Shown here in pieces: positions 6,195-15,996 of a stretch of 64,000 bases of DNA (positions are counted from its first letter, which is position 1; each line of letters starts with the position of its first letter). The notes under the pieces were generated by a model. It saw only the letters and a program-made list of their open reading frames with translations, was not told where the DNA came from and ran no database searches. The translations under genes were made by a program, and so were the position numbers. Source of the stretch: a virus (taxonomy: Duplodnaviria; Heunggongvirae; Uroviricota; Caudoviricetes); the IMG/VR virus record IMGVR_UViG_3300012153_000089, positions 64,001 to 128,000 of that record, one strand, 5' to 3'.

Positions 6195-6245
6195 ATAATA
6201 ATCCAACTTTTGGCGCTTGACAATCACATTTGGTAGCCGACTAAA
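6195..6245 (-). promoter_or_regulatory. promoter TTGTCA-N17-TATTAT with 18-bp operator ATTTGGTAGCCGACTAAA
   Basis: -35 at 6223-6218, -10 at 6200-6195; operator 6228-6245 identical to 11611-11628. Confidence 0.65.
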
Positions 6246-6318
6246 TTGTATTGACATATGCATAAATATGGAATCAGATCCATATTGATGTCGCATGATG
6301 TCGAATAATGATAATCAC

Positions 6319-6332
6319 AGAACCTATGTTCG
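6319..6332. promoter_or_regulatory. LexA/DinR (Cheo) SOS box
   Basis: AGAACCTATGTTCG matches Bacillus GAAC-N4-GTTC; minus-strand TATAAT immediately upstream. Confidence 0.7.
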
Positions 6333-6421
6333 TATTTATTATACTTCAAATAACTTTTTATTAAAAGTGCTATTTAATTTCATGATTATTTGATCCTCTA
6401 GTGAAACTATGTATAGCTGCC

Positions 6422-6796
6422 CTATTTACCAAACAGCTTTTTGATAAATGTTTTAACTGCGTTCTCCTTGCTTGCGGATATGGTAACATAGTTCTCTTTT
6501 TCTTCGTCAAAAAATACTTTTCCTACTTCATAATCTACACTCTTCATTCTATTCATATTCCCAAGTGTTCCTTTGTCAGTCATGATCATTCCTTCACTTT
6601 GACTTAACAATTTAAAGATAGCATCTTTACTTTCACAATAAACGAACTCACCATCATCGGTGTGAATTACAAATTTATAGTTGTTTTTTGTAAACAGTTC
6701 TCTTGTACATTTAAGTATATCCTTTTCATTCATCCACTCAGCATCATCACTGATTTTTTTACCCTCTTTTCTTTGAACCATAATCATTCTATTCAA
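6422..6796 (-). CDS. stand-alone LytTR DNA-binding protein (no receiver domain)
   Basis: 124 aa; DILK...FVIHTDDGEF...GMIMTDKGTLGNMNRMKSVD...VFFD fits LytTR pattern. Confidence 0.7.
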   Translation of the reverse strand: MNRMIMVQRKEGKKISDDAEWMNEKDILKCTRELFTKNNYKFVIHTDDGEFVYCESKDAIFKLLSQSEGMIMTDKGTLGNMNRMKSVDYEVGKVFFDEEKENYVTISASKENAVKTFIKKLFGK

Positions 6797-6817
6797 ATCG
6801 ACACCCCGTTTAAATCA

Positions 6818-6847
6818 GCCCTCCGATTTTGTGTGAAATTGGAGGGC
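6818..6847 (-). terminator. hairpin between agrD and LytTR gene (partial terminator or mRNA stabiliser)
   Basis: GCCCTCCGATTT / AAATTGGAGGGC inverted repeat; only a weak U-tract. Confidence 0.5.
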
Positions 6848-6859
6848 CACTTATTTACA

Positions 6860-6994
6860 TTACTTCATTTCTTCTGGAACTGGTTCATTATGTACCAATG
6901 TCCAACTTGCAGCATTCACTCCCATGGTTGTTGCAGCAACCAACAAGAAACCAAATGCAGTCATTCCCATTTTAATCATTTTCATTTTATTCAT
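6860..6994 (-). CDS. agrD: AgrD cyclic-lactone autoinducer propeptide (44 aa), missed by ORF track
   Basis: RBS AAAGGAGG; MNKMKMIKMGMTAFGFLLVAATTMGVNAASWTLVHNEPVPEEMK: amphipathic leader, S-x4 ring core, H-x-E-P-x-x-P-EE tail; overlaps agrB stop. Confidence 0.9.
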   Translation of the reverse strand: MNKMKMIKMGMTAFGFLLVAATTMGVNAASWTLVHNEPVPEEMK

Positions 6995-7520
6995 TTTTCC
7001 CACCTCCTTTCAAGCGTATCAAAAAGATGCTTTGGGCTAGATAGGAGGTGCTTATTAAATAGTTATCTAGGAAGAATCCAACTGCTAATATTACTATTGA
7101 AACTAATTTGAGATACTTGAAGTTCTCCTTGAGAATCTTTGTTTGTCCCTCAATATTAGACGGAGAGAATATCAACACTAAAGTTAATGAAATCAAATTC
7201 ACTACCACTGTATACTCTTCAAAGAAGTATCCAAACTTTGCTATTGATAGAATCATAATTGTTGAAATAACTAGACATAATTCAGGTTTCTTTGCATGAA
7301 ATCCCCCAGACACAAGTCTAAGAGTGGAGAAAGACAAAATACTAATCATCACTTCATTAAAGGCATCAATAACTGCCCCAATTAACAAAAGAAGTATAAT
7401 TGGTAGTAAGTTCGAGATTAAAAATTTAATACCGTATCTAGTTACACCATAAGGAGGGAGTTCTTCTGGAAATTTATTTACCAGCGATGTTGAAATATTG
7501 TTTACCAGCTTGTCAATCAT
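6987..7520 (-). CDS. agrB: accessory gene regulator B (AgrB) peptide-processing membrane protease
   Basis: YGIKFLISN...LRLVSGGFHAKKPELC...LIFSP: conserved LR..GG.H and Cys; multi-TM. Confidence 0.9.
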   Translation of the reverse strand: MIDKLVNNISTSLVNKFPEELPPYGVTRYGIKFLISNLLPIILLLLIGAVIDAFNEVMISILSFSTLRLVSGGFHAKKPELCLVISTIMILSIAKFGYFFEEYTVVVNLISLTLVLIFSPSNIEGQTKILKENFKYLKLVSIVILAVGFFLDNYLISTSYLAQSIFLIRLKGGGKNE

Positions 7521-8161
7521 CAGCTTTCACTCTTCTCCTTTTTAATGTCTAAATACATGAGGTTAATAAGGCAAATTCCCCAAAATACTAGCCCTAGGTA
7601 TACATTCTCAATAGTTTTTATGTTATATAAAAATGATATGATTACACATGATATTAATAAACTTAAAATATTGATCTTATTCAATTTAAGTTTAAATGTG
7701 TAATCATATGGCATTGTTGTAAACCATATTCTACGTTTTTGAAGTATTAATGTTATAGCTATTAGCAGTCCGTCTCCAATCAGTTGCACCCATTGCCCAT
7801 GAGTATGTAAACTTTCTGTATAATTTAGGTTGAAAGAAACCATAAAGATCGAATTCGCAATTAATTGGGCGATAATCTGTGCTACAAAGCCGTAAACTGC
7901 AAGTTTTATACTACTCCATACTGTTATTCTAAAGTAAAAGGTTAAAGAAACAATTAATAATGCAAGACATAGCAATGGAATTACGCTTATCATAAATGAA
8001 TTGTTACGCAATAAGAATGTTCCTATTGAAATCACTAAGTTCGTAACTAATATCTCCTTCCAGTAATCTCGAAAACTTATCTTGAAACATCCAAAAGCAA
8101 ACATAAAAATTGTAATTCCGTCCAACAAACTCATTAGTGTATATAAGATATCCTCTTTCAT
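7520..8161 (-). CDS. 6-7 TM membrane protein resembling an AgrC sensor domain, without kinase domain
   Basis: 213 aa almost entirely hydrophobic; ends KKEKSES with stop overlapping agrB ATG; no H-box or HATPase. Confidence 0.6.
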   Translation of the reverse strand: MKEDILYTLMSLLDGITIFMFAFGCFKISFRDYWKEILVTNLVISIGTFLLRNNSFMISVIPLLCLALLIVSLTFYFRITVWSSIKLAVYGFVAQIIAQLIANSIFMVSFNLNYTESLHTHGQWVQLIGDGLLIAITLILQKRRIWFTTMPYDYTFKLKLNKINILSLLISCVIISFLYNIKTIENVYLGLVFWGICLINLMYLDIKKEKSES

Positions 8162-8208
8162 GTCTTATCTCCTTTTAAATAATAAAATAATATGTATCTC
8201 TTAAATAG

Positions 8209-8237
8209 AATATATCACAGTGTATGTAGAGAGTCAA
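8209..8237 (-). promoter_or_regulatory. promoter of agr-like cassette, TTGACT-N17-TATATT with extended TG
   Basis: -35 at 8237-8232, TGa then -10 at 8214-8209. Confidence 0.7.
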
Positions 8238-8273: not shown

Positions 8274-9311
8274 TTATTCTTCAGTGCCATATAACTTATT
8301 TATAGTATCAATATTTAAGAAATTTCTTCTAATAACATCGATATTAAATGTACCATCCTCTTTTTTTCCTACATCAAAATGTTCGCAAATATCATAGTAT
8401 TCCTCTATTCCTAGTCTTCCCCGTTCTCTGTGCAGGTCTCTAGCCATTTTAAGCATACCGCTATTGCGCAGATTAATCGCTGTTAGCATTGGGAAGTTAT
8501 TAAATTCTCCAGCCTTTTTAATTCTTCGACCCAATATTTGACCTTGTGTTGGTCTACCGTCATCTTGATTGCTATTAGTCGCAGCAGTTCTCAGATGAAC
8601 AGCAGTTTTTAATATATAGCCATTATCAACTAAAACATTGTGTCTAGATTTTATAGATTCCGATACCAATCCATTGTTTTTAAGGTATTTATCTTCTTTA
8701 TTTGCACTCTTCAAGATTTCATAAAGATTACTAGAGATTAGTATCTCTCTACTCGTAACTCCATCTGCTGTGTCATTGAACAACTTTATCTTATATTTAT
8801 CTTTTATATTTGTCTCCGATATATGTTCCATTTTCATATTTGCTAATTCACTCATAACGTTACCTGATATGCCTTCCCAAACTCCTTGCACTACGGCCTG
8901 ATCTTGAGCATTAATTAGACTGTCTACTATGTTGTCAATTTGTTTCTCTGTAAACAGCATCAATGAACTATCATCCACAAACTGGCTGTACCACTCATGT
9001 GTAGTTATGGCTATCAAAGGATTAATATTGTCCTTGCGGAGATCCTGCTCAATGGCCCACTGTATATAATTTCTTGCGACACTACCCGCATGTCTTAATG
9101 ATGAAATTTTTGTAGCCTTTAATGTAAATAAAAACTGCGAAATATCCTGTAAATTAAAATCATAAAGATCCTTGTTTAAAGTTGATTCCATTATTGCAGT
9201 TTTCCTCAATATGGTAGCATATGATTTTCTGGTTGACTCTGTGCTTAAACTCTTAAGGTATCTATCTTTTTGATCTTTATTGAAAAAATCATTGAAGTAA
9301 ACCTTATTCAT
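8274..9311 (-). CDS. mrpR: MrpR/YopR-like lytic-cycle repressor (catalytically degenerate tyrosine-recombinase fold)
   Basis: KDRYL...TRKSY...KDLYDFN...NYIQWAI N-domain; catalytic Arg motif replaced (WEGISGNVMSEL); follows a YopQ-like gene as in SPbeta. Start set at ATG 9311. Confidence 0.75.
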   Translation of the reverse strand: MNKVYFNDFFNKDQKDRYLKSLSTESTRKSYATILRKTAIMESTLNKDLYDFNLQDISQFLFTLKATKISSLRHAGSVARNYIQWAIEQDLRKDNINPLIAITTHEWYSQFVDDSSLMLFTEKQIDNIVDSLINAQDQAVVQGVWEGISGNVMSELANMKMEHISETNIKDKYKIKLFNDTADGVTSREILISSNLYEILKSANKEDKYLKNNGLVSESIKSRHNVLVDNGYILKTAVHLRTAATNSNQDDGRPTQGQILGRRIKKAGEFNNFPMLTAINLRNSGMLKMARDLHRERGRLGIEEYYDICEHFDVGKKEDGTFNIDVIRRNFLNIDTINKLYGTEE

Positions 9312-10629
9312 TGGCTGCTTCCCCCTCAAATAACCTTGAAAAATAAGCAATAAGCTTATCCCGAACTCTTTTGTTACCTGTCAATATTTTTTTCTCATTT
9401 AATAAAGAAATTAATTCTGCATCTTCAAAATCTATTAGCTCTACATATCTTTCAATTTCATCTAAACTTAGCTCATTTGATTGCATATATTTTGACATTA
9501 CAATGTAGCCAATAAACATCAAGGGATGACTCATCGTGCGATTCTTACGTTGTTTGATGTCGGGTGAAAATTCATCCGGGTAATTCCCAACTAAATACGC
9601 AAAAAATTCATTCAGATATTTCGATGTTTTGATGATATCTAGCTGCCTTTGAAGATGATAAACATTATCAATAGCATATGTCATAATATCAAAAATCGTT
9701 AGTTCTCCCGCAAGATCACTAATCATACTAGCTGAAGCTATCTGTTTTCCAATTTCCGATTTTTGTTGTAGGTCAGAAACTACTTTATCTGATAATCTTT
9801 CTTGCGCTAATTCTTTTCTTCTTTCTTTCTTCAATACATTTATTGTATTTAATTGACTGAAAAATTTCTTAGCGGTTTCAAAATCGTATACTCGGATAGA
9901 TAATATTTCATTCAATTCAGCCTTTGGATTGATCTGCAAAGCAGCCACAGCCCCCTGAAGACGATGAAAGCCATCAAGTATAGAGATAACTGCGCCGTTA
10001 TTGATGGTAAACGTTTTAGATTCCGCGTGATATGTTACTGGGTCAACTTCCGTTGAATATACATTAAGAATGATCATATCTTCAAAGTATTGATTCTTAG
10101 CCATCTTTGATGTGATCCTTTTAACACTCGCCTTATTAACTATTGGAGTTTTAACTATCCCTCCAGATTTATTCTCTTTATAAACTACCCCACGTTGTGT
10201 TTCTTCGTCATAGATGATGAGTTGACTGTTGACCATTGTAACTAATTTTTGTATAGAAATTTTAGTTAAGTAGCTGTCATACTTTATTTGTATAACTTCA
10301 TCAAAAGTTAGTGGTAATGATAATTTGTCAGCATCTTCGCTAGAAAGAGCATTTTCCGAATCTCTTATTTCTCTGTCTCCAAATAAAGATTCTGGATTTA
10401 GCTTTTTATCTTTCAATAAATCATATAAACCACGAGTCAATCCAATAAGATATTGTAATTCTGTCTCTTTGATTATTTCTTCATTTTGTATTAATGACTG
10501 TGGTAAGCCAAAAGGCACATTATATTCTGCGAGACTCATATTTAACTCATACAATTTTCGTCTAGAATGCTTAACTTCCATTAATGCATCAATTATTCTT
10601 TGTTCAATTTCTTCTCTTTCAATTTTCAT
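9304..10629 (-). CDS. YopQ/SroE-like DGQHR (DndB/ParB-like) protein
   Basis: 441 aa with ILDGFHRL motif; adjacent to MrpR-like gene. Confidence 0.7.
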   Translation of the reverse strand: MKIEREEIEQRIIDALMEVKHSRRKLYELNMSLAEYNVPFGLPQSLIQNEEIIKETELQYLIGLTRGLYDLLKDKKLNPESLFGDREIRDSENALSSEDADKLSLPLTFDEVIQIKYDSYLTKISIQKLVTMVNSQLIIYDEETQRGVVYKENKSGGIVKTPIVNKASVKRITSKMAKNQYFEDMIILNVYSTEVDPVTYHAESKTFTINNGAVISILDGFHRLQGAVAALQINPKAELNEILSIRVYDFETAKKFFSQLNTINVLKKERRKELAQERLSDKVVSDLQQKSEIGKQIASASMISDLAGELTIFDIMTYAIDNVYHLQRQLDIIKTSKYLNEFFAYLVGNYPDEFSPDIKQRKNRTMSHPLMFIGYIVMSKYMQSNELSLDEIERYVELIDFEDAELISLLNEKKILTGNKRVRDKLIAYFSRLFEGEAANE

Positions 10630-11087: not shown

Positions 11088-11459
11088 TTACAAACCAAGA
11101 GACAAGGACAATGCATTGTTAACTGCACTTTCAAGATATTTTGGTATTCTTGAAATCTTAAATGCAAGCTTATCTTTGGGTACAGTAATAACTTGTTCAA
11201 GCATAACAATACTGTCACCATATAGTCCGTTTTCATCAGCGTTTAATTTTACATGTGTAGGCATTGGTCTTTTGATTTTACTTGTTGTCAATGGCGAAAC
11301 AATTACCACTGGACTATATTTATTACCTACATCATTGCTAGTGATCAAGCACGGTCTGCTGCCACCTTGTACACTCCCTCTACTTTCGCCTAAATCAACT
11401 TCCCAAACTTCTAATCTTTTCACTACTTTATTCATTGTCTGTTCCATTGCTACCGCCAT
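11088..11459 (-). CDS. mazF: MazF/PemK endoribonuclease (no adjacent antitoxin gene)
   Basis: EVWEVDLG..RGSVQGGSRPCLITSNDVGNKYSPVVIVSPLTT...PTHV...IVMLEQVITV; RBS AAGGAG points to ATG 11459. Confidence 0.9.
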   Translation of the reverse strand: MAVAMEQTMNKVVKRLEVWEVDLGESRGSVQGGSRPCLITSNDVGNKYSPVVIVSPLTTSKIKRPMPTHVKLNADENGLYGDSIVMLEQVITVPKDKLAFKISRIPKYLESAVNNALSLSLGL

Positions 11460-11556
11460 CAATCCCACTCCTTATTGCATCTCGTATTTTGGGTTTGTTT
11501 AGTAATCTATATATACCACAATCTATATGTACTTAATTTCTAAATGTTATATTATC

Positions 11557-11610: not shown

Positions 11611-11628
11611 ATTTGGTAGCCGACTAAA
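11611..11628. promoter_or_regulatory. 18-bp operator (second copy) between divergent mazF and rsfA
   Basis: Exact repeat of 6228-6245; imperfect palindrome. Confidence 0.65.
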
Positions 11629-13720: not shown

Positions 13721-14092
13721 CTACTCACCAGAATACTTATTCACCGTTATCGGATAATGGTATATCTCAATATCCTCTTCTATGAATCCTCTCCGCTGAG
13801 CTGCCAACAAAGTCTCATACATGTTCTGTCTTCCTACAGGATTGTCAGTATGTATGTAGATCTTATCAGCCTTAAGTCCATGTTCACAGAAATACTTCAC
13901 TAAGTCATATCCATTGGGCAACTCTTTCCCATCTACATCCTCACCAAGATCGTGGTCTAATGTAAGAATAGCCACCTCTTTGGTCTCAAGAATATGTATA
14001 GCTTCATAGTATGTACGAGCGACCACAAAGCCTTCTGGACAGTCTCTGAGGTCGTCTACGTAAAGGTTTATCTTATCTGTCATGGTCGCCAT
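13721..14092 (-). CDS. cyclic-phosphate-processing receiver-like domain protein
   Basis: LYVDDLRDCP...LDHDLG...GYDLVKY...IHTDNPVGRQNM signature. Confidence 0.8.
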   Translation of the reverse strand: MATMTDKINLYVDDLRDCPEGFVVARTYYEAIHILETKEVAILTLDHDLGEDVDGKELPNGYDLVKYFCEHGLKADKIYIHTDNPVGRQNMYETLLAAQRRGFIEEDIEIYHYPITVNKYSGE

Positions 14093-14142
14093 CCTCCCCC
14101 GTGAAACACATCTTTCATTGATTCTTGCTGGATATAGAAATG

Positions 14143-14451
14143 CTAATAATTTGTGTATGCGGCTTCTACAAGAATCGCAACAAGTTGATATAGACGATAA
14201 TCATTAAACTCACTTTCGTTATCATAGATAGCGGCGACTTTGTCTGATAATTCGTCGATATTTAGTTCCTTATCGCTTGTTAACGTGATGGATTTCTCCA
14301 GATTCTCATCTTCTCCTGTGTATACTTGATAAAATACTTTATAGATGTATTTGGCACTTTTAGTGTATCTGCTTTTTAACTCATTAGGTAATTCTTTATG
14401 CATTATCTTTGAATTGTTCTCCTGAGACTTATAGTACACAGCATACTCCAT
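14143..14451 (-). CDS. hypothetical protein
   Basis: Lies between palindromes at 14101 and 14475. Confidence 0.55.
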   Translation of the reverse strand: MEYAVYYKSQENNSKIMHKELPNELKSRYTKSAKYIYKVFYQVYTGEDENLEKSITLTSDKELNIDELSDKVAAIYDNESEFNDYRLYQLVAILVEAAYTNY

Positions 14452-14491
14452 TCATTTGCCTCACTCTCAAGATAGTAAAATAGCCATTTGA

Positions 14492-15010
14492 TTAAGACTC
14501 AGCAGCCAATAATCCAGCAACTCGATCTAACTCATCTTGACTGTGAACAGTGCCTCCACTATTCATCTGTAAATACCATTCAAGCACTTCTTTACGAGTT
14601 TGAAGGTTATTAACATGAAAACTCAAGCGTACCATCATTGGAATCTTATCTTCAAAGTCTTTATAAAAGTGACCAAATGCTTTAATTTGATTTCTAAGGA
14701 ACCCAAGACATGCTGTAAGACGTTGTAAACCATCAACGCATACAAACCAGCCATCTCCTTTTCCCTCTGTTCCTTGCCATTTAGTATGATTAAAGTAAAT
14801 ATCTAAACCAGACACTCCTTCGCGTAACAAGTGCTCTATATAAAGTTCCTGTTGGCCCAAATTCCAAACGTATCCGCGTTGAAAGTCTGGAATTAATTCC
14901 AATCCCATTTCTTCAATATATTCGTCAAGTGTACTCTCCAAATATCTTAAAGACACGTCTACTGAATAATTGTTGCACTGTATGTATGGCTTAATCTCTT
15001 TAAATTTCAC
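14492..15010 (-). CDS. DUF262 / ParB-like domain protein
   Basis: IPDFQRGYVW...VDGLQRLTA motifs. Confidence 0.75.
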   Translation of the reverse strand: MKFKEIKPYIQCNNYSVDVSLRYLESTLDEYIEEMGLELIPDFQRGYVWNLGQQELYIEHLLREGVSGLDIYFNHTKWQGTEGKGDGWFVCVDGLQRLTACLGFLRNQIKAFGHFYKDFEDKIPMMVRLSFHVNNLQTRKEVLEWYLQMNSGGTVHSQDELDRVAGLLAAES

Positions 15011-15387: not shown

Positions 15388-15561
15388 CTATTGTATCCCC
15401 ATCAAGCCTACACTTAATAAAACGAAGCCCACACCGCAAAGAATTACATCCTTTGCCATGTAACTATAAAATCTACCAAAGAAACTAATAAAGAAGGAGA
15501 TTAAGTTGAATCCAAACACTACTAACCCCATCATGCACAGACCAATGAATAGAAAGTCCAT
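15388..15561 (-). CDS. small 2-TM membrane protein (57 aa), below ORF-track cutoff
   Basis: RBS GAGGTGAG; MDFLFIGLCMMGLVVFGFNLISFFISFFGRFYSYMAKDVILCGVGFVLLSVGLMGIQ. Confidence 0.6.
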   Translation of the reverse strand: MDFLFIGLCMMGLVVFGFNLISFFISFFGRFYSYMAKDVILCGVGFVLLSVGLMGIQ

Positions 15562-15660
15562 TTACTCACCTCAATAACCTTATGAAATAAACCTTTCACA
15601 ATCATATGTATGTTGCTACTATATATCTATCCTAATTATATAGTAGCAACAGTTTATAAA

Positions 15661-15996
15661 CTACTCAGACTTGTTGATAAGTGATTCAAGCTTTCTAAAC
15701 ATCGCATTGGGGATACTCACTTGTTTTCCTTGTTCGAATTCAATCGTCATGTCTTCTTCATTAATTCTTCTAACTTTAGAGGGATTGATACATAATGCGT
15801 GATCTGACTTCACAATTAAATTGTGTTTGCGTAAATGCTCTAGTAATTCAGTACTGCTTGCCGTTCTGTATTTTTTATTTTTGTCTTCCAAATGAACTCT
15901 TACAACATTTGATTCAGTTCTGTTTAGATAGGATATATCAGATACACTTACGGTTGCCACTTCTTCAGTTTCGATATCAAATACAGGAATCATCAT
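15661..15996 (-). CDS. second stand-alone LytTR-domain protein
   Basis: VSVSDISYL...VRVHL...KSDHALCINPSKVRRI...IEFEQG. Confidence 0.65.
   Translation of the reverse strand: MMIPVFDIETEEVATVSVSDISYLNRTESNVVRVHLEDKNKKYRTASSTELLEHLRKHNLIVKSDHALCINPSKVRRINEEDMTIEFEQGKQVSIPNAMFRKLESLINKSE

Follow-up and report, generated by a model that had tools for sequence, protein, structure and literature searches.

Can a temperate phage use an agr-type cyclic peptide in its own choice between lysis and lysogeny? The question is raised by a four-gene cassette (positions 6422–8237) in a 64,000-nucleotide stretch of viral DNA, referred to here as the window, which comprises bases 64001–128000 of a 152.5-kb IMG/VR provirus rated complete. 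The relatives of this provirus are Paenibacillus prophages. The cassette encodes a seven-helix membrane protein (here called TM), AgrB, AgrD and a protein with a predicted LytTR fold, and an earlier note on the window had read it as a hybrid between agr and a LytTR regulatory system (LRS). Arbitrium, which is of the RRNPP type, is to our knowledge the sole phage-made peptide system that is known to steer lysogeny. We favour the reading that the cassette is a phosphorylation-independent agr/LRS hybrid, whose peptide acts through TM and the LytTR protein and which is used in phage decisions, with a probability of roughly 0.55.

The cassette is a single unit that runs from one promoter to its end, with a terminator bounding its upstream side. 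The earlier note had placed it directly after the master repressor gene mrpR. This was confirmed, as a strong intrinsic terminator at the end of the mazF-yopQ-mrpR transcript (8282–8255, minus strand; a 10-bp stem followed by T8; conserved in related prophages) is followed by the cassette promoter (8237–8209, minus strand). A promoter scan gave this promoter, TTGACT-17-TATATT with the TG of an extended −10, 10/12 matches plus the TG, and its −35 and −10 sites are conserved across nine related prophages. All four open reading frames (ORFs) of the cassette were found on the minus strand where the earlier note had put them: TM (7520–8161, 213 aa), agrB (6987–7520), agrD (6860–6994) and the LytTR gene (6422–6796). 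The stop codon of TM overlaps the start of AgrB (ATGA), the end of AgrB overlaps the start of agrD by 8 nt, and agrD starts at an ATG behind GGAGGTG. The LytTR protein is 124 aa long from a TTG start, or 119 aa from an ATG at 6781. Between agrD and the LytTR gene lies a GC-rich hairpin (6818–6847, 13-bp stem), a possible partial terminator or attenuator. Its T-run on the minus strand is poor, and read-through into the LytTR gene may therefore be partial.

The gene identities of the earlier note were borne out. AgrB, the membrane peptidase expected to cyclise AgrD, matched Pfam PF04647 with 83.4 bits (cut-off 23) and phrog_10353 with E 7e-29, and its translation reads a His75/Cys82 pair, seven residues apart, in a GGFHA...C motif. 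We take these two residues to be the equivalents of His77 and Cys84 in Staphylococcus aureus. AgrD, a 44-aa propeptide, matched TIGR04223 with 21.0 bits (cut-off 19). The Ser of the window AgrD aligns with the Cys or Ser of about 45 AgrDs of the family, before the conserved tail, and occupies the Cys position of related AgrDs, five residues ahead of H-x-x-x-x-P-x-E-L. The predicted product is a five-residue Ser-lactone ring, SWTLV, in agreement with the earlier prediction.

The fourth protein, which belongs to phrog_15081, gave no LytTR match in Pfam or NCBIfam searches. Its AlphaFold2 (AF2) model had a pLDDT of 78.5 for the best of five predictions and 38–43 for the other four. When this model was compared with the PDB by Foldseek, the 13 best matches were all LytTR domains (from AgrA, ComE and a Bacillus cereus protein), the top one being AgrA 4g4k (E 7.5e-5, TM-score 0.74 by target). 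Iterated search from the window protein led to relatives above the Pfam LytTR cut-off, the best of them at 53.9 bits, and the 124 aa of the protein are the size of a LytTR domain alone. Its predicted fold and family linkage thus assign the 124-aa protein to the LytTR family, as a receiver-less putative output regulator.

Searches across the 152.5-kb provirus gave no match to AimR (PF22871) at E ≤ 10, nor to TPR_12 or RNPP_C, and none to Response_reg or HATPase_c. HATPase_c_5 reached only 9.7 bits (cut-off 22, E 0.11), a hit below threshold in a frame of 1180 aa that is unrelated and lies beyond the window. The provirus therefore carries neither half of a phosphorelay, no AimR and no other RRNPP-type receptor, and the earlier note was right both on the missing phosphorelay and on the missing AimR.

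TM is the proposed peptide sensor and LytTR partner. It matched phrog_15604 (E 5.6e-10) and no family in Pfam or NCBIfam, and its AF2 model has seven predicted helices. By the positive-inside rule, the N-terminus would lie outside the cell, while the strongly basic and highly conserved loop of residues 142–161 and the conserved C-terminal D-x-K-K-E motif would lie inside. The only near-invariant residues of the family are Q99, Q126 and E209. The Atlas model of TM aligned over 194–199 residues with the N-terminal membrane part of two HATPase_c_5 kinase clusters, with a TM-score of 0.67–0.68, and the AlphaFold DB returned weaker matches of the same kind, again to the N-terminal membrane module of kinases (TM-score 0.60). 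The TM family profile gave only noise against PDB sequences. The predicted complex of TM with the LytTR protein scored 0.24 against a mark of 0.32, which speaks neither for nor against binding. A search with the family profile of a library of 1.8 billion proteins yielded 84 cluster representatives, most of 206–236 aa, with a few shorter fragments and none of kinase size. A recent truncation of agrC, which the earlier note had named among the findings that would undo its proposal, was rejected as the origin of TM on this ground.

How common the module is was examined in a sample of 381 Paenibacillaceae genomes. The TM family was present in 241 of these (about 63%), often in several copies, and AgrB was likewise present in 241. 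Fifty modules were analysed, 40 of them the top matches of the TM-family search in this sample. The gene order TM, AgrB and then a LytTR-only protein of 110–150 aa was found in 47 of the 50, LytTR going undetected in the remaining 3, and nearly all of the 47 had an AgrD-like small ORF between AgrB and LytTR. None of the 50 had a kinase-like ORF within 3 kb. One module, that of Paenibacillus sambharensis, lies between sugar-transport and oxidoreductase genes, outside any prophage. The small ORFs have the agr layout of a leader, a variable core and H-x-P-x-x-P-x-E-L-L, and, five residues ahead of the His of this tail, which is conserved, the core has a Cys (e.g. CWWFG) or a Ser (e.g. SLLWV, SWTFV). 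The SWTLV of the window fits the Ser class and is similar to the chromosomal Ser-type cores SWTFV and SWVYV. The cassette is therefore not specific to phages. It is an ordinary chromosomal module of the Paenibacillaceae, captured by temperate phages, and not a phage invention.

One clade of AgrD-like peptides lacks the ring Cys or Ser altogether. It occurs on chromosomes (L048, L051, L053, L055, L056, L059, L063) and in Brevibacillus phages (L103 5507–5647 and L104 4380–4496), with such sequences as ...IIKPYI/HSPEIPKELRK and ...VLKPWA/HSPEAP, and a conserved Lys-Pro four residues before the tail. These sequences suggest another ring chemistry, perhaps a lactam, or a linear product.

The modules were next set against canonical agr loci of the same bacterial family, represented by the 17 best-scoring AgrB loci from the 381 genomes. 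In all 17, AgrB was followed by a kinase of 427–455 aa and then by an ORF of 240–249 aa, which matched the LytTR profile in 12. An AgrD-like ORF was detected in 11 of the 17, and a TM homologue in none. By their place in the module, TM and the LytTR protein fill the sensor and effector slots held elsewhere by AgrC and AgrA. Since the TM modules lack a kinase and the canonical loci lack TM, we argue that TM is a sensor and not a helper in peptide synthesis, and from this pattern a receptor role is likely. The hybrid idea of the earlier note gained from the same comparison, TM and the short LytTR protein never occurring with a kinase and canonical loci never with TM. For the architecture, the comparison across genomes gives good support to the reading as an agr/LRS hybrid that lacks a phosphorelay.

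An alternative is that TM helps in the making or export of the peptide, or in resistance to it, as S. aureus MroQ does for its peptide, while an AgrC-type kinase of the host reads the signal and the phage LytTR protein competes at LytTR boxes. Maturation of the S. aureus autoinducing peptide is reported to need a second membrane protease (PMC9388083), and the sequence of TM does not resemble those of kinase sensor domains. The hosts also have candidate readers: in all three host genomes checked (L015, L016, L017; G002, G003, G001), a HATPase_c_5 kinase of 431–432 aa lies beside a LytTR response regulator, with no AgrB adjoining. These orphan AgrC/AgrA-like pairs could eavesdrop on peptides. 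We nevertheless consider a helper role improbable. The agrBD genes of Paenibacillus polymyxa were alone enough for peptide production in Bacillus subtilis (PMC12180512), canonical AgrB-AgrD loci of the same family do without TM, and TM itself strictly accompanies LytTR proteins that lack a receiver and is absent from loci with a kinase. The idea that TM is, like MroQ, a protease of the CAAX/Abi type was examined separately and rejected, the protein having neither a conserved His/Glu motif nor a Pfam match.

A further alternative is that a captured agr locus is in decay and that the cassette, as its remnant, no longer has a function. The kinase and the receiver are missing, and the LytTR protein has diverged too far for detection by Pfam, as a remnant would have it. 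However, none of the four frames is broken in any relative, AgrB retains its catalytic His/Cys and AgrD its ring Ser, and the architecture is conserved across hundreds of genomes. The ratio of non-synonymous to synonymous substitution (dN/dS) was 0.06–0.21 for all four cassette genes where dS was unsaturated, and 0.18 for MrpR. Decay is on these grounds highly improbable.

The link of the hybrid reading to lysogeny control comes from where phages carry the module. In the window this is behind mrpR (8274–9350, minus strand), a YopR-type master repressor gene identified by Pfam MrpR_N_CB (82.1 bits) and MrpR_C_cat (51.8 bits), whose product is 27–32% identical to YopR of SPbeta, phi3T and relatives. 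Of the 381 genomes, 34 had homologues of mrpR, at 37 loci in total, and none had AimR above cut-off. At 8 of the 37 loci TM, AgrB and LytTR lay directly downstream of mrpR, in three arrangements: the window type (G001, G003, G091, G340), the order AgrB-TM-AgrD-LytTR with a longer LytTR protein (L067, L083, L090), and a LytTR gene after mrpR with the full module 2 kb further on (L076). One more locus (L069) had the LytTR gene alone after mrpR. Most mrpR elements of the family manage without the cassette and without arbitrium. The earlier suggestion that the cassette replaces arbitrium was thus overstated, its sole basis being position.

In a maximum-likelihood tree of TM, with midpoint rooting for drawing only and three long branches, the window clade was monophyletic on a long stem (support 100/100). 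The L067/L083/L090 type formed a separate clade, L076 was nested in a chromosomal clade, and the proteins of Brevibacillus phages made up a fourth group. The isolated Brevibacillus phages Abouo, Davies and Emery are unrelated phages of 45–58 kb. DNA and protein BLAST searches with TM and the LytTR protein against 50,697 phage records gave no match, and the Brevibacillus cassette was located through AgrB alone and then confirmed with the family profiles (111–127 bits for TM and 39–59 bits for LytTR). The regions of Abouo and Emery were examined, Davies being known from its AgrB match only, and in both the four genes lie beside a recombinase/integrase gene and XRE/CI-type regulator genes. In the deposited records the fourth gene is called 'peptidase' (Abouo gp47, L103 5651–6019) or hypothetical; its Emery counterpart is gp57 (L104 4506–4871). 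Abouo gp47 scored 29.4 bits with Pfam LytTR and 59 bits with the short-LytTR family profile, and its 'peptidase' label is by these matches probably wrong. The GenBank name of this protein is also what gives PHROG 15081 its label.

Tree and gene neighbourhoods together suggest at least four independent phage captures of the module, each beside lysogeny-control genes. This repeated landing at the lysogeny switch is our main argument for use of the module by the phage itself. It also bears on the principal alternative, in which the cassette is a lysogenic-conversion module that brings host-type quorum sensing, either as an extra pherotype or as interference with the TM-AgrBD-LytTR modules of the host, and in which the LytTR protein regulates host genes instead of the switch of the phage. 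Cargo of this sort would be expected in moron hot-spots near lysis genes or genome ends, but the captures appear beside repressor and integrase genes, in unrelated phage types. The window clade, moreover, is old, monophyletic and long-branched, and its cassette genes diverge in step with MrpR (median amino-acid identity 54–61%, versus 49% for MrpR), which suggests integration into phage biology. In favour of conversion, the module is common on chromosomes, chromosomal copies are present in hosts of the related prophages themselves (G001, G340), and cross-talk is plausible given the resemblance of the chromosomal SWTFV and SWVYV to the phage SWTLV.

The promoters near the cassette bear on both readings. 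About 80 bp after the LytTR stop codon lies an early promoter (6320–6343, minus strand; −10 TATAAT at 6338–6343), which heads the replication-module genes and is conserved in all nine related prophages. It overlaps a LexA-type box, CGAACATAGGTTC (6320–6332), assigned from what we take to be the Bacillus SOS box consensus, GAAC-N4-GTTC. The overlap suggests that the replication module is under direct SOS control. Exactly two identical copies of an 18-bp sequence, TTTAGTCGGCTACCAAAT, are present in the 64 kb, where chance would give 0.03, one at this early promoter (6228–6245) and one in the divergent region between mazF and a Myb-like gene (11611–11628). By analogy with SPBRE of SPbeta, the sequence is probably the MrpR operator. 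A further block, TGCATAAATATGRAA, is common to both TTTAGTCGGCTACCAAAT regions and lies nearby, and the block 6287–6343 of the early promoter also holds two CGACA(T) repeats 11 bp apart (about 6287–6305).

The cassette promoter has neither TTTAGTCGGCTACCAAAT nor the LexA-type box, nor other operators of the neighbouring promoters. As it is conserved and yet without these two elements, the cassette is probably expressed in the lysogen. The same features are among those that conversion would predict: a constitutive-looking promoter of its own without the operators common to the regulatory promoters of the phage, the terminator of mrpR immediately before it, and a hairpin within the unit. A heptamer, ATACATA, marks both ends of the cassette on the minus strand and is conserved across the related prophages: one copy is in the 5' leader, some 12 nt downstream of the −10 (8191–8197), and the other just past the LytTR stop codon (6408–6414).

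In the mechanism that we propose, the cassette's own sigma-A-type promoter would express AgrB, AgrD, TM and the LytTR-fold protein, and AgrB would process AgrD to a cyclic peptide with the five-residue Ser-lactone ring SWTLV. TM would bind this peptide outside the cell and would hold or release the LytTR protein by direct contact, without a phosphorelay, as in HdrRM and BrsRM, and the freed or captured LytTR protein would then change transcription. Less securely, its target may lie within the lysis–lysogeny circuit, for which the LexA-box early promoter and the mazF-yopQ-mrpR promoter are candidates. In that case the peptide might report how dense lysogens or infected cells are and so bias lysogenisation or induction, in the way that arbitrium works in SPbeta. 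Extended to temperate phages of the Paenibacillaceae in general, the proposal that they use a cyclic agr-type peptide as their own lysis–lysogeny or induction signal, with a kinase-less seven-helix receptor gating a bare LytTR protein, is put forward tentatively, and with less confidence than the hybrid reading of the cassette itself.

Several results weigh against the hybrid reading as we state it. Because only the 8 of 37 mrpR loci carry the cassette, it would seem accessory to the switch and not its core, and that most mrpR elements lack it is also what conversion would predict. A promoter of its own behind an upstream terminator is, besides, the classic look of a lysogenic-conversion moron. 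The contacts of TM with the peptide and with the LytTR protein are ones that we infer. The AF2 prediction for the LytTR protein was confident in just one of five models. The TM family, compared profile to profile by hhalign with the sensor domains of the hosts' AgrC-type kinases, gave a probability below 1%, and no solved structure resembles the TM model, the Foldseek search of the PDB returning only noise. The autoregulatory direct repeats of agr P2/P3 or LRS type, which in LRS lie upstream of the −35, did not materialise either. A search upstream of TM in the 50 modules (9-mers, at most one mismatch, start-to-start spacing 19–23) found no consistent pair. Repeats were absent in the window and in 6 of 8 close prophage relatives, the isolated, non-conserved pairs at 9 loci look like chance, and the aligned promoters of two chromosomal clades were ordinary and sigma-A-like, with no repeat pair. 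In the phage, the mrpR terminator abuts the −35 of the cassette promoter. With these points counted, a role of the module in lysis–lysogeny is plausible but circumstantial, and conversion, though we judge it doubtful, is the strongest of the alternatives.

On the minus strand, the neighbourhood reads PemK/MazF toxin gene, a 68-aa gene, yopQ, mrpR, terminator, promoter, TM, agrB, agrD and LytTR gene. The PemK/MazF-family toxin gene (11088–11468, minus strand; Pfam 90.7 bits) is the first gene of the yopQ-mrpR operon. It has no obvious antitoxin gene before it, an arrangement conserved in all related prophages. This is of interest since the MazEF of the host is what arbitrium acts through in SPbeta and phi3T. 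The YopQ gene, which is DndB-like, spans 9304–10629 (minus strand). Upstream of the repressor operon (13721–15010, minus strand), a cREC_REC protein (106.9 bits) and a GmrSD_N-like protein (47.3 bits) are encoded, possibly as defence or counter-defence cargo. A second stand-alone LytTR protein, of 111 aa with 31.6 bits to Pfam LytTR, is encoded at 15388–15996 (minus strand), where its gene is followed by one for an almost wholly hydrophobic 57-aa protein with two predicted helices. The pair, regulator then membrane protein, has the classic LRS gene order, and several related prophages have kept the second LytTR gene, some 8 kb upstream of mrpR.

The module had not gone wholly unnoticed. Hargreaves et al. 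(2014) described agrB, agrD and agrC in phage phiCDHM1 (agr3) and mentioned in passing a Brevibacillus cassette with AgrB, AgrD and membrane proteins without an ATPase domain (PMC3901668). The LytTR gene, the chromosomal family, the LRS link and a mechanism are not described there. The architecture thus had a partial precedent in 2014, to which the LytTR gene, the chromosomal family and the link to LRS are added here. Zou et al. (2018) defined LRS as systems without a ligand, in which a LytTR regulator is paired with a membrane inhibitor (PMC6193735). In the literature searched we found no description of a TM-AgrB-AgrD-LytTR architecture: later phage papers list only 'accessory gene regulator B', the Paenibacillus agr papers found concern canonical agrABCD loci, and searches for LRS with AgrB, or for phage agr with lysogeny, returned nothing further.

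If this wider proposal is true, phages would have a second family of peptide communication, with a mechanism unrelated to that of arbitrium, and phage-to-phage signalling would have evolved more than once, by different chemistry. The cassette would also be the prototype of a ligand-gated LytTR regulatory system, widespread in bacteria, with the AgrD peptide encoded beside a sensor pair as a candidate ligand for LRS-like systems, which have so far been described without one. A large uncharacterised class of quorum sensing may then hide in soil and plant-associated bacilli, given that about 63% of the Paenibacillaceae species sampled have this architecture. As isolated phages that can be cultivated, Abouo, Davies and Emery make the reading directly testable.

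Among known systems, the cassette resembles canonical agr (agrBDCA of Staphylococcus, Listeria, Clostridia and P. polymyxa) in the His/Cys peptidase AgrB, in the five-residue ring position and conserved acidic/Pro tail of AgrD, and in an output protein with the LytTR DNA-binding fold. It differs in that it has no AgrC kinase (neither DHp nor ATPase), its LytTR protein lacks a receiver domain, its first gene encodes a stand-alone seven-helix membrane protein, and no P2/P3-type repeats were found upstream. With LRS such as HdrRM and BrsRM (PMC6193735) it shares a receiver-less LytTR regulator co-encoded with a polytopic membrane protein, and it is proposed, like them, to signal without phosphorylation. 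LRS have no known ligand or signal-synthesis genes, whereas the cassette has agrBD. In LRS the regulator gene comes first, whereas here the membrane protein does, and the pair brackets agrBD. The membrane proteins of LRS are unrelated to TM, which has no Pfam match, and LRS carry 9-bp direct repeats, 11–13 bp apart and about 10 bp upstream of the −35, that are absent in the cassette.

Of the phages, phiCDHM1 is likewise temperate and has agrB and agrD, but it has a genuine kinase and lacks a regulator. The cassette noted in the temperate phages Abouo, Davies and Emery is the same four-gene module, while the copy in the window follows mrpR in a phage of SPbeta-like type. Arbitrium (AimR-AimP-AimX) relies on a linear hexapeptide that is taken up by the cell and sensed by a TPR receptor in the cytoplasm, whereas the peptide of the cassette would be cyclic and presumably read at the membrane. 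The components of the two systems are non-homologous, and aimR-aimP lies upstream of yopM-yopR in SPbeta, whereas the cassette is downstream of mrpR. In common with arbitrium, the cassette appears to be a phage-encoded, secreted peptide system in the yopQ-mrpR neighbourhood, with a presumed role in density-dependent bias between lysis and lysogeny.

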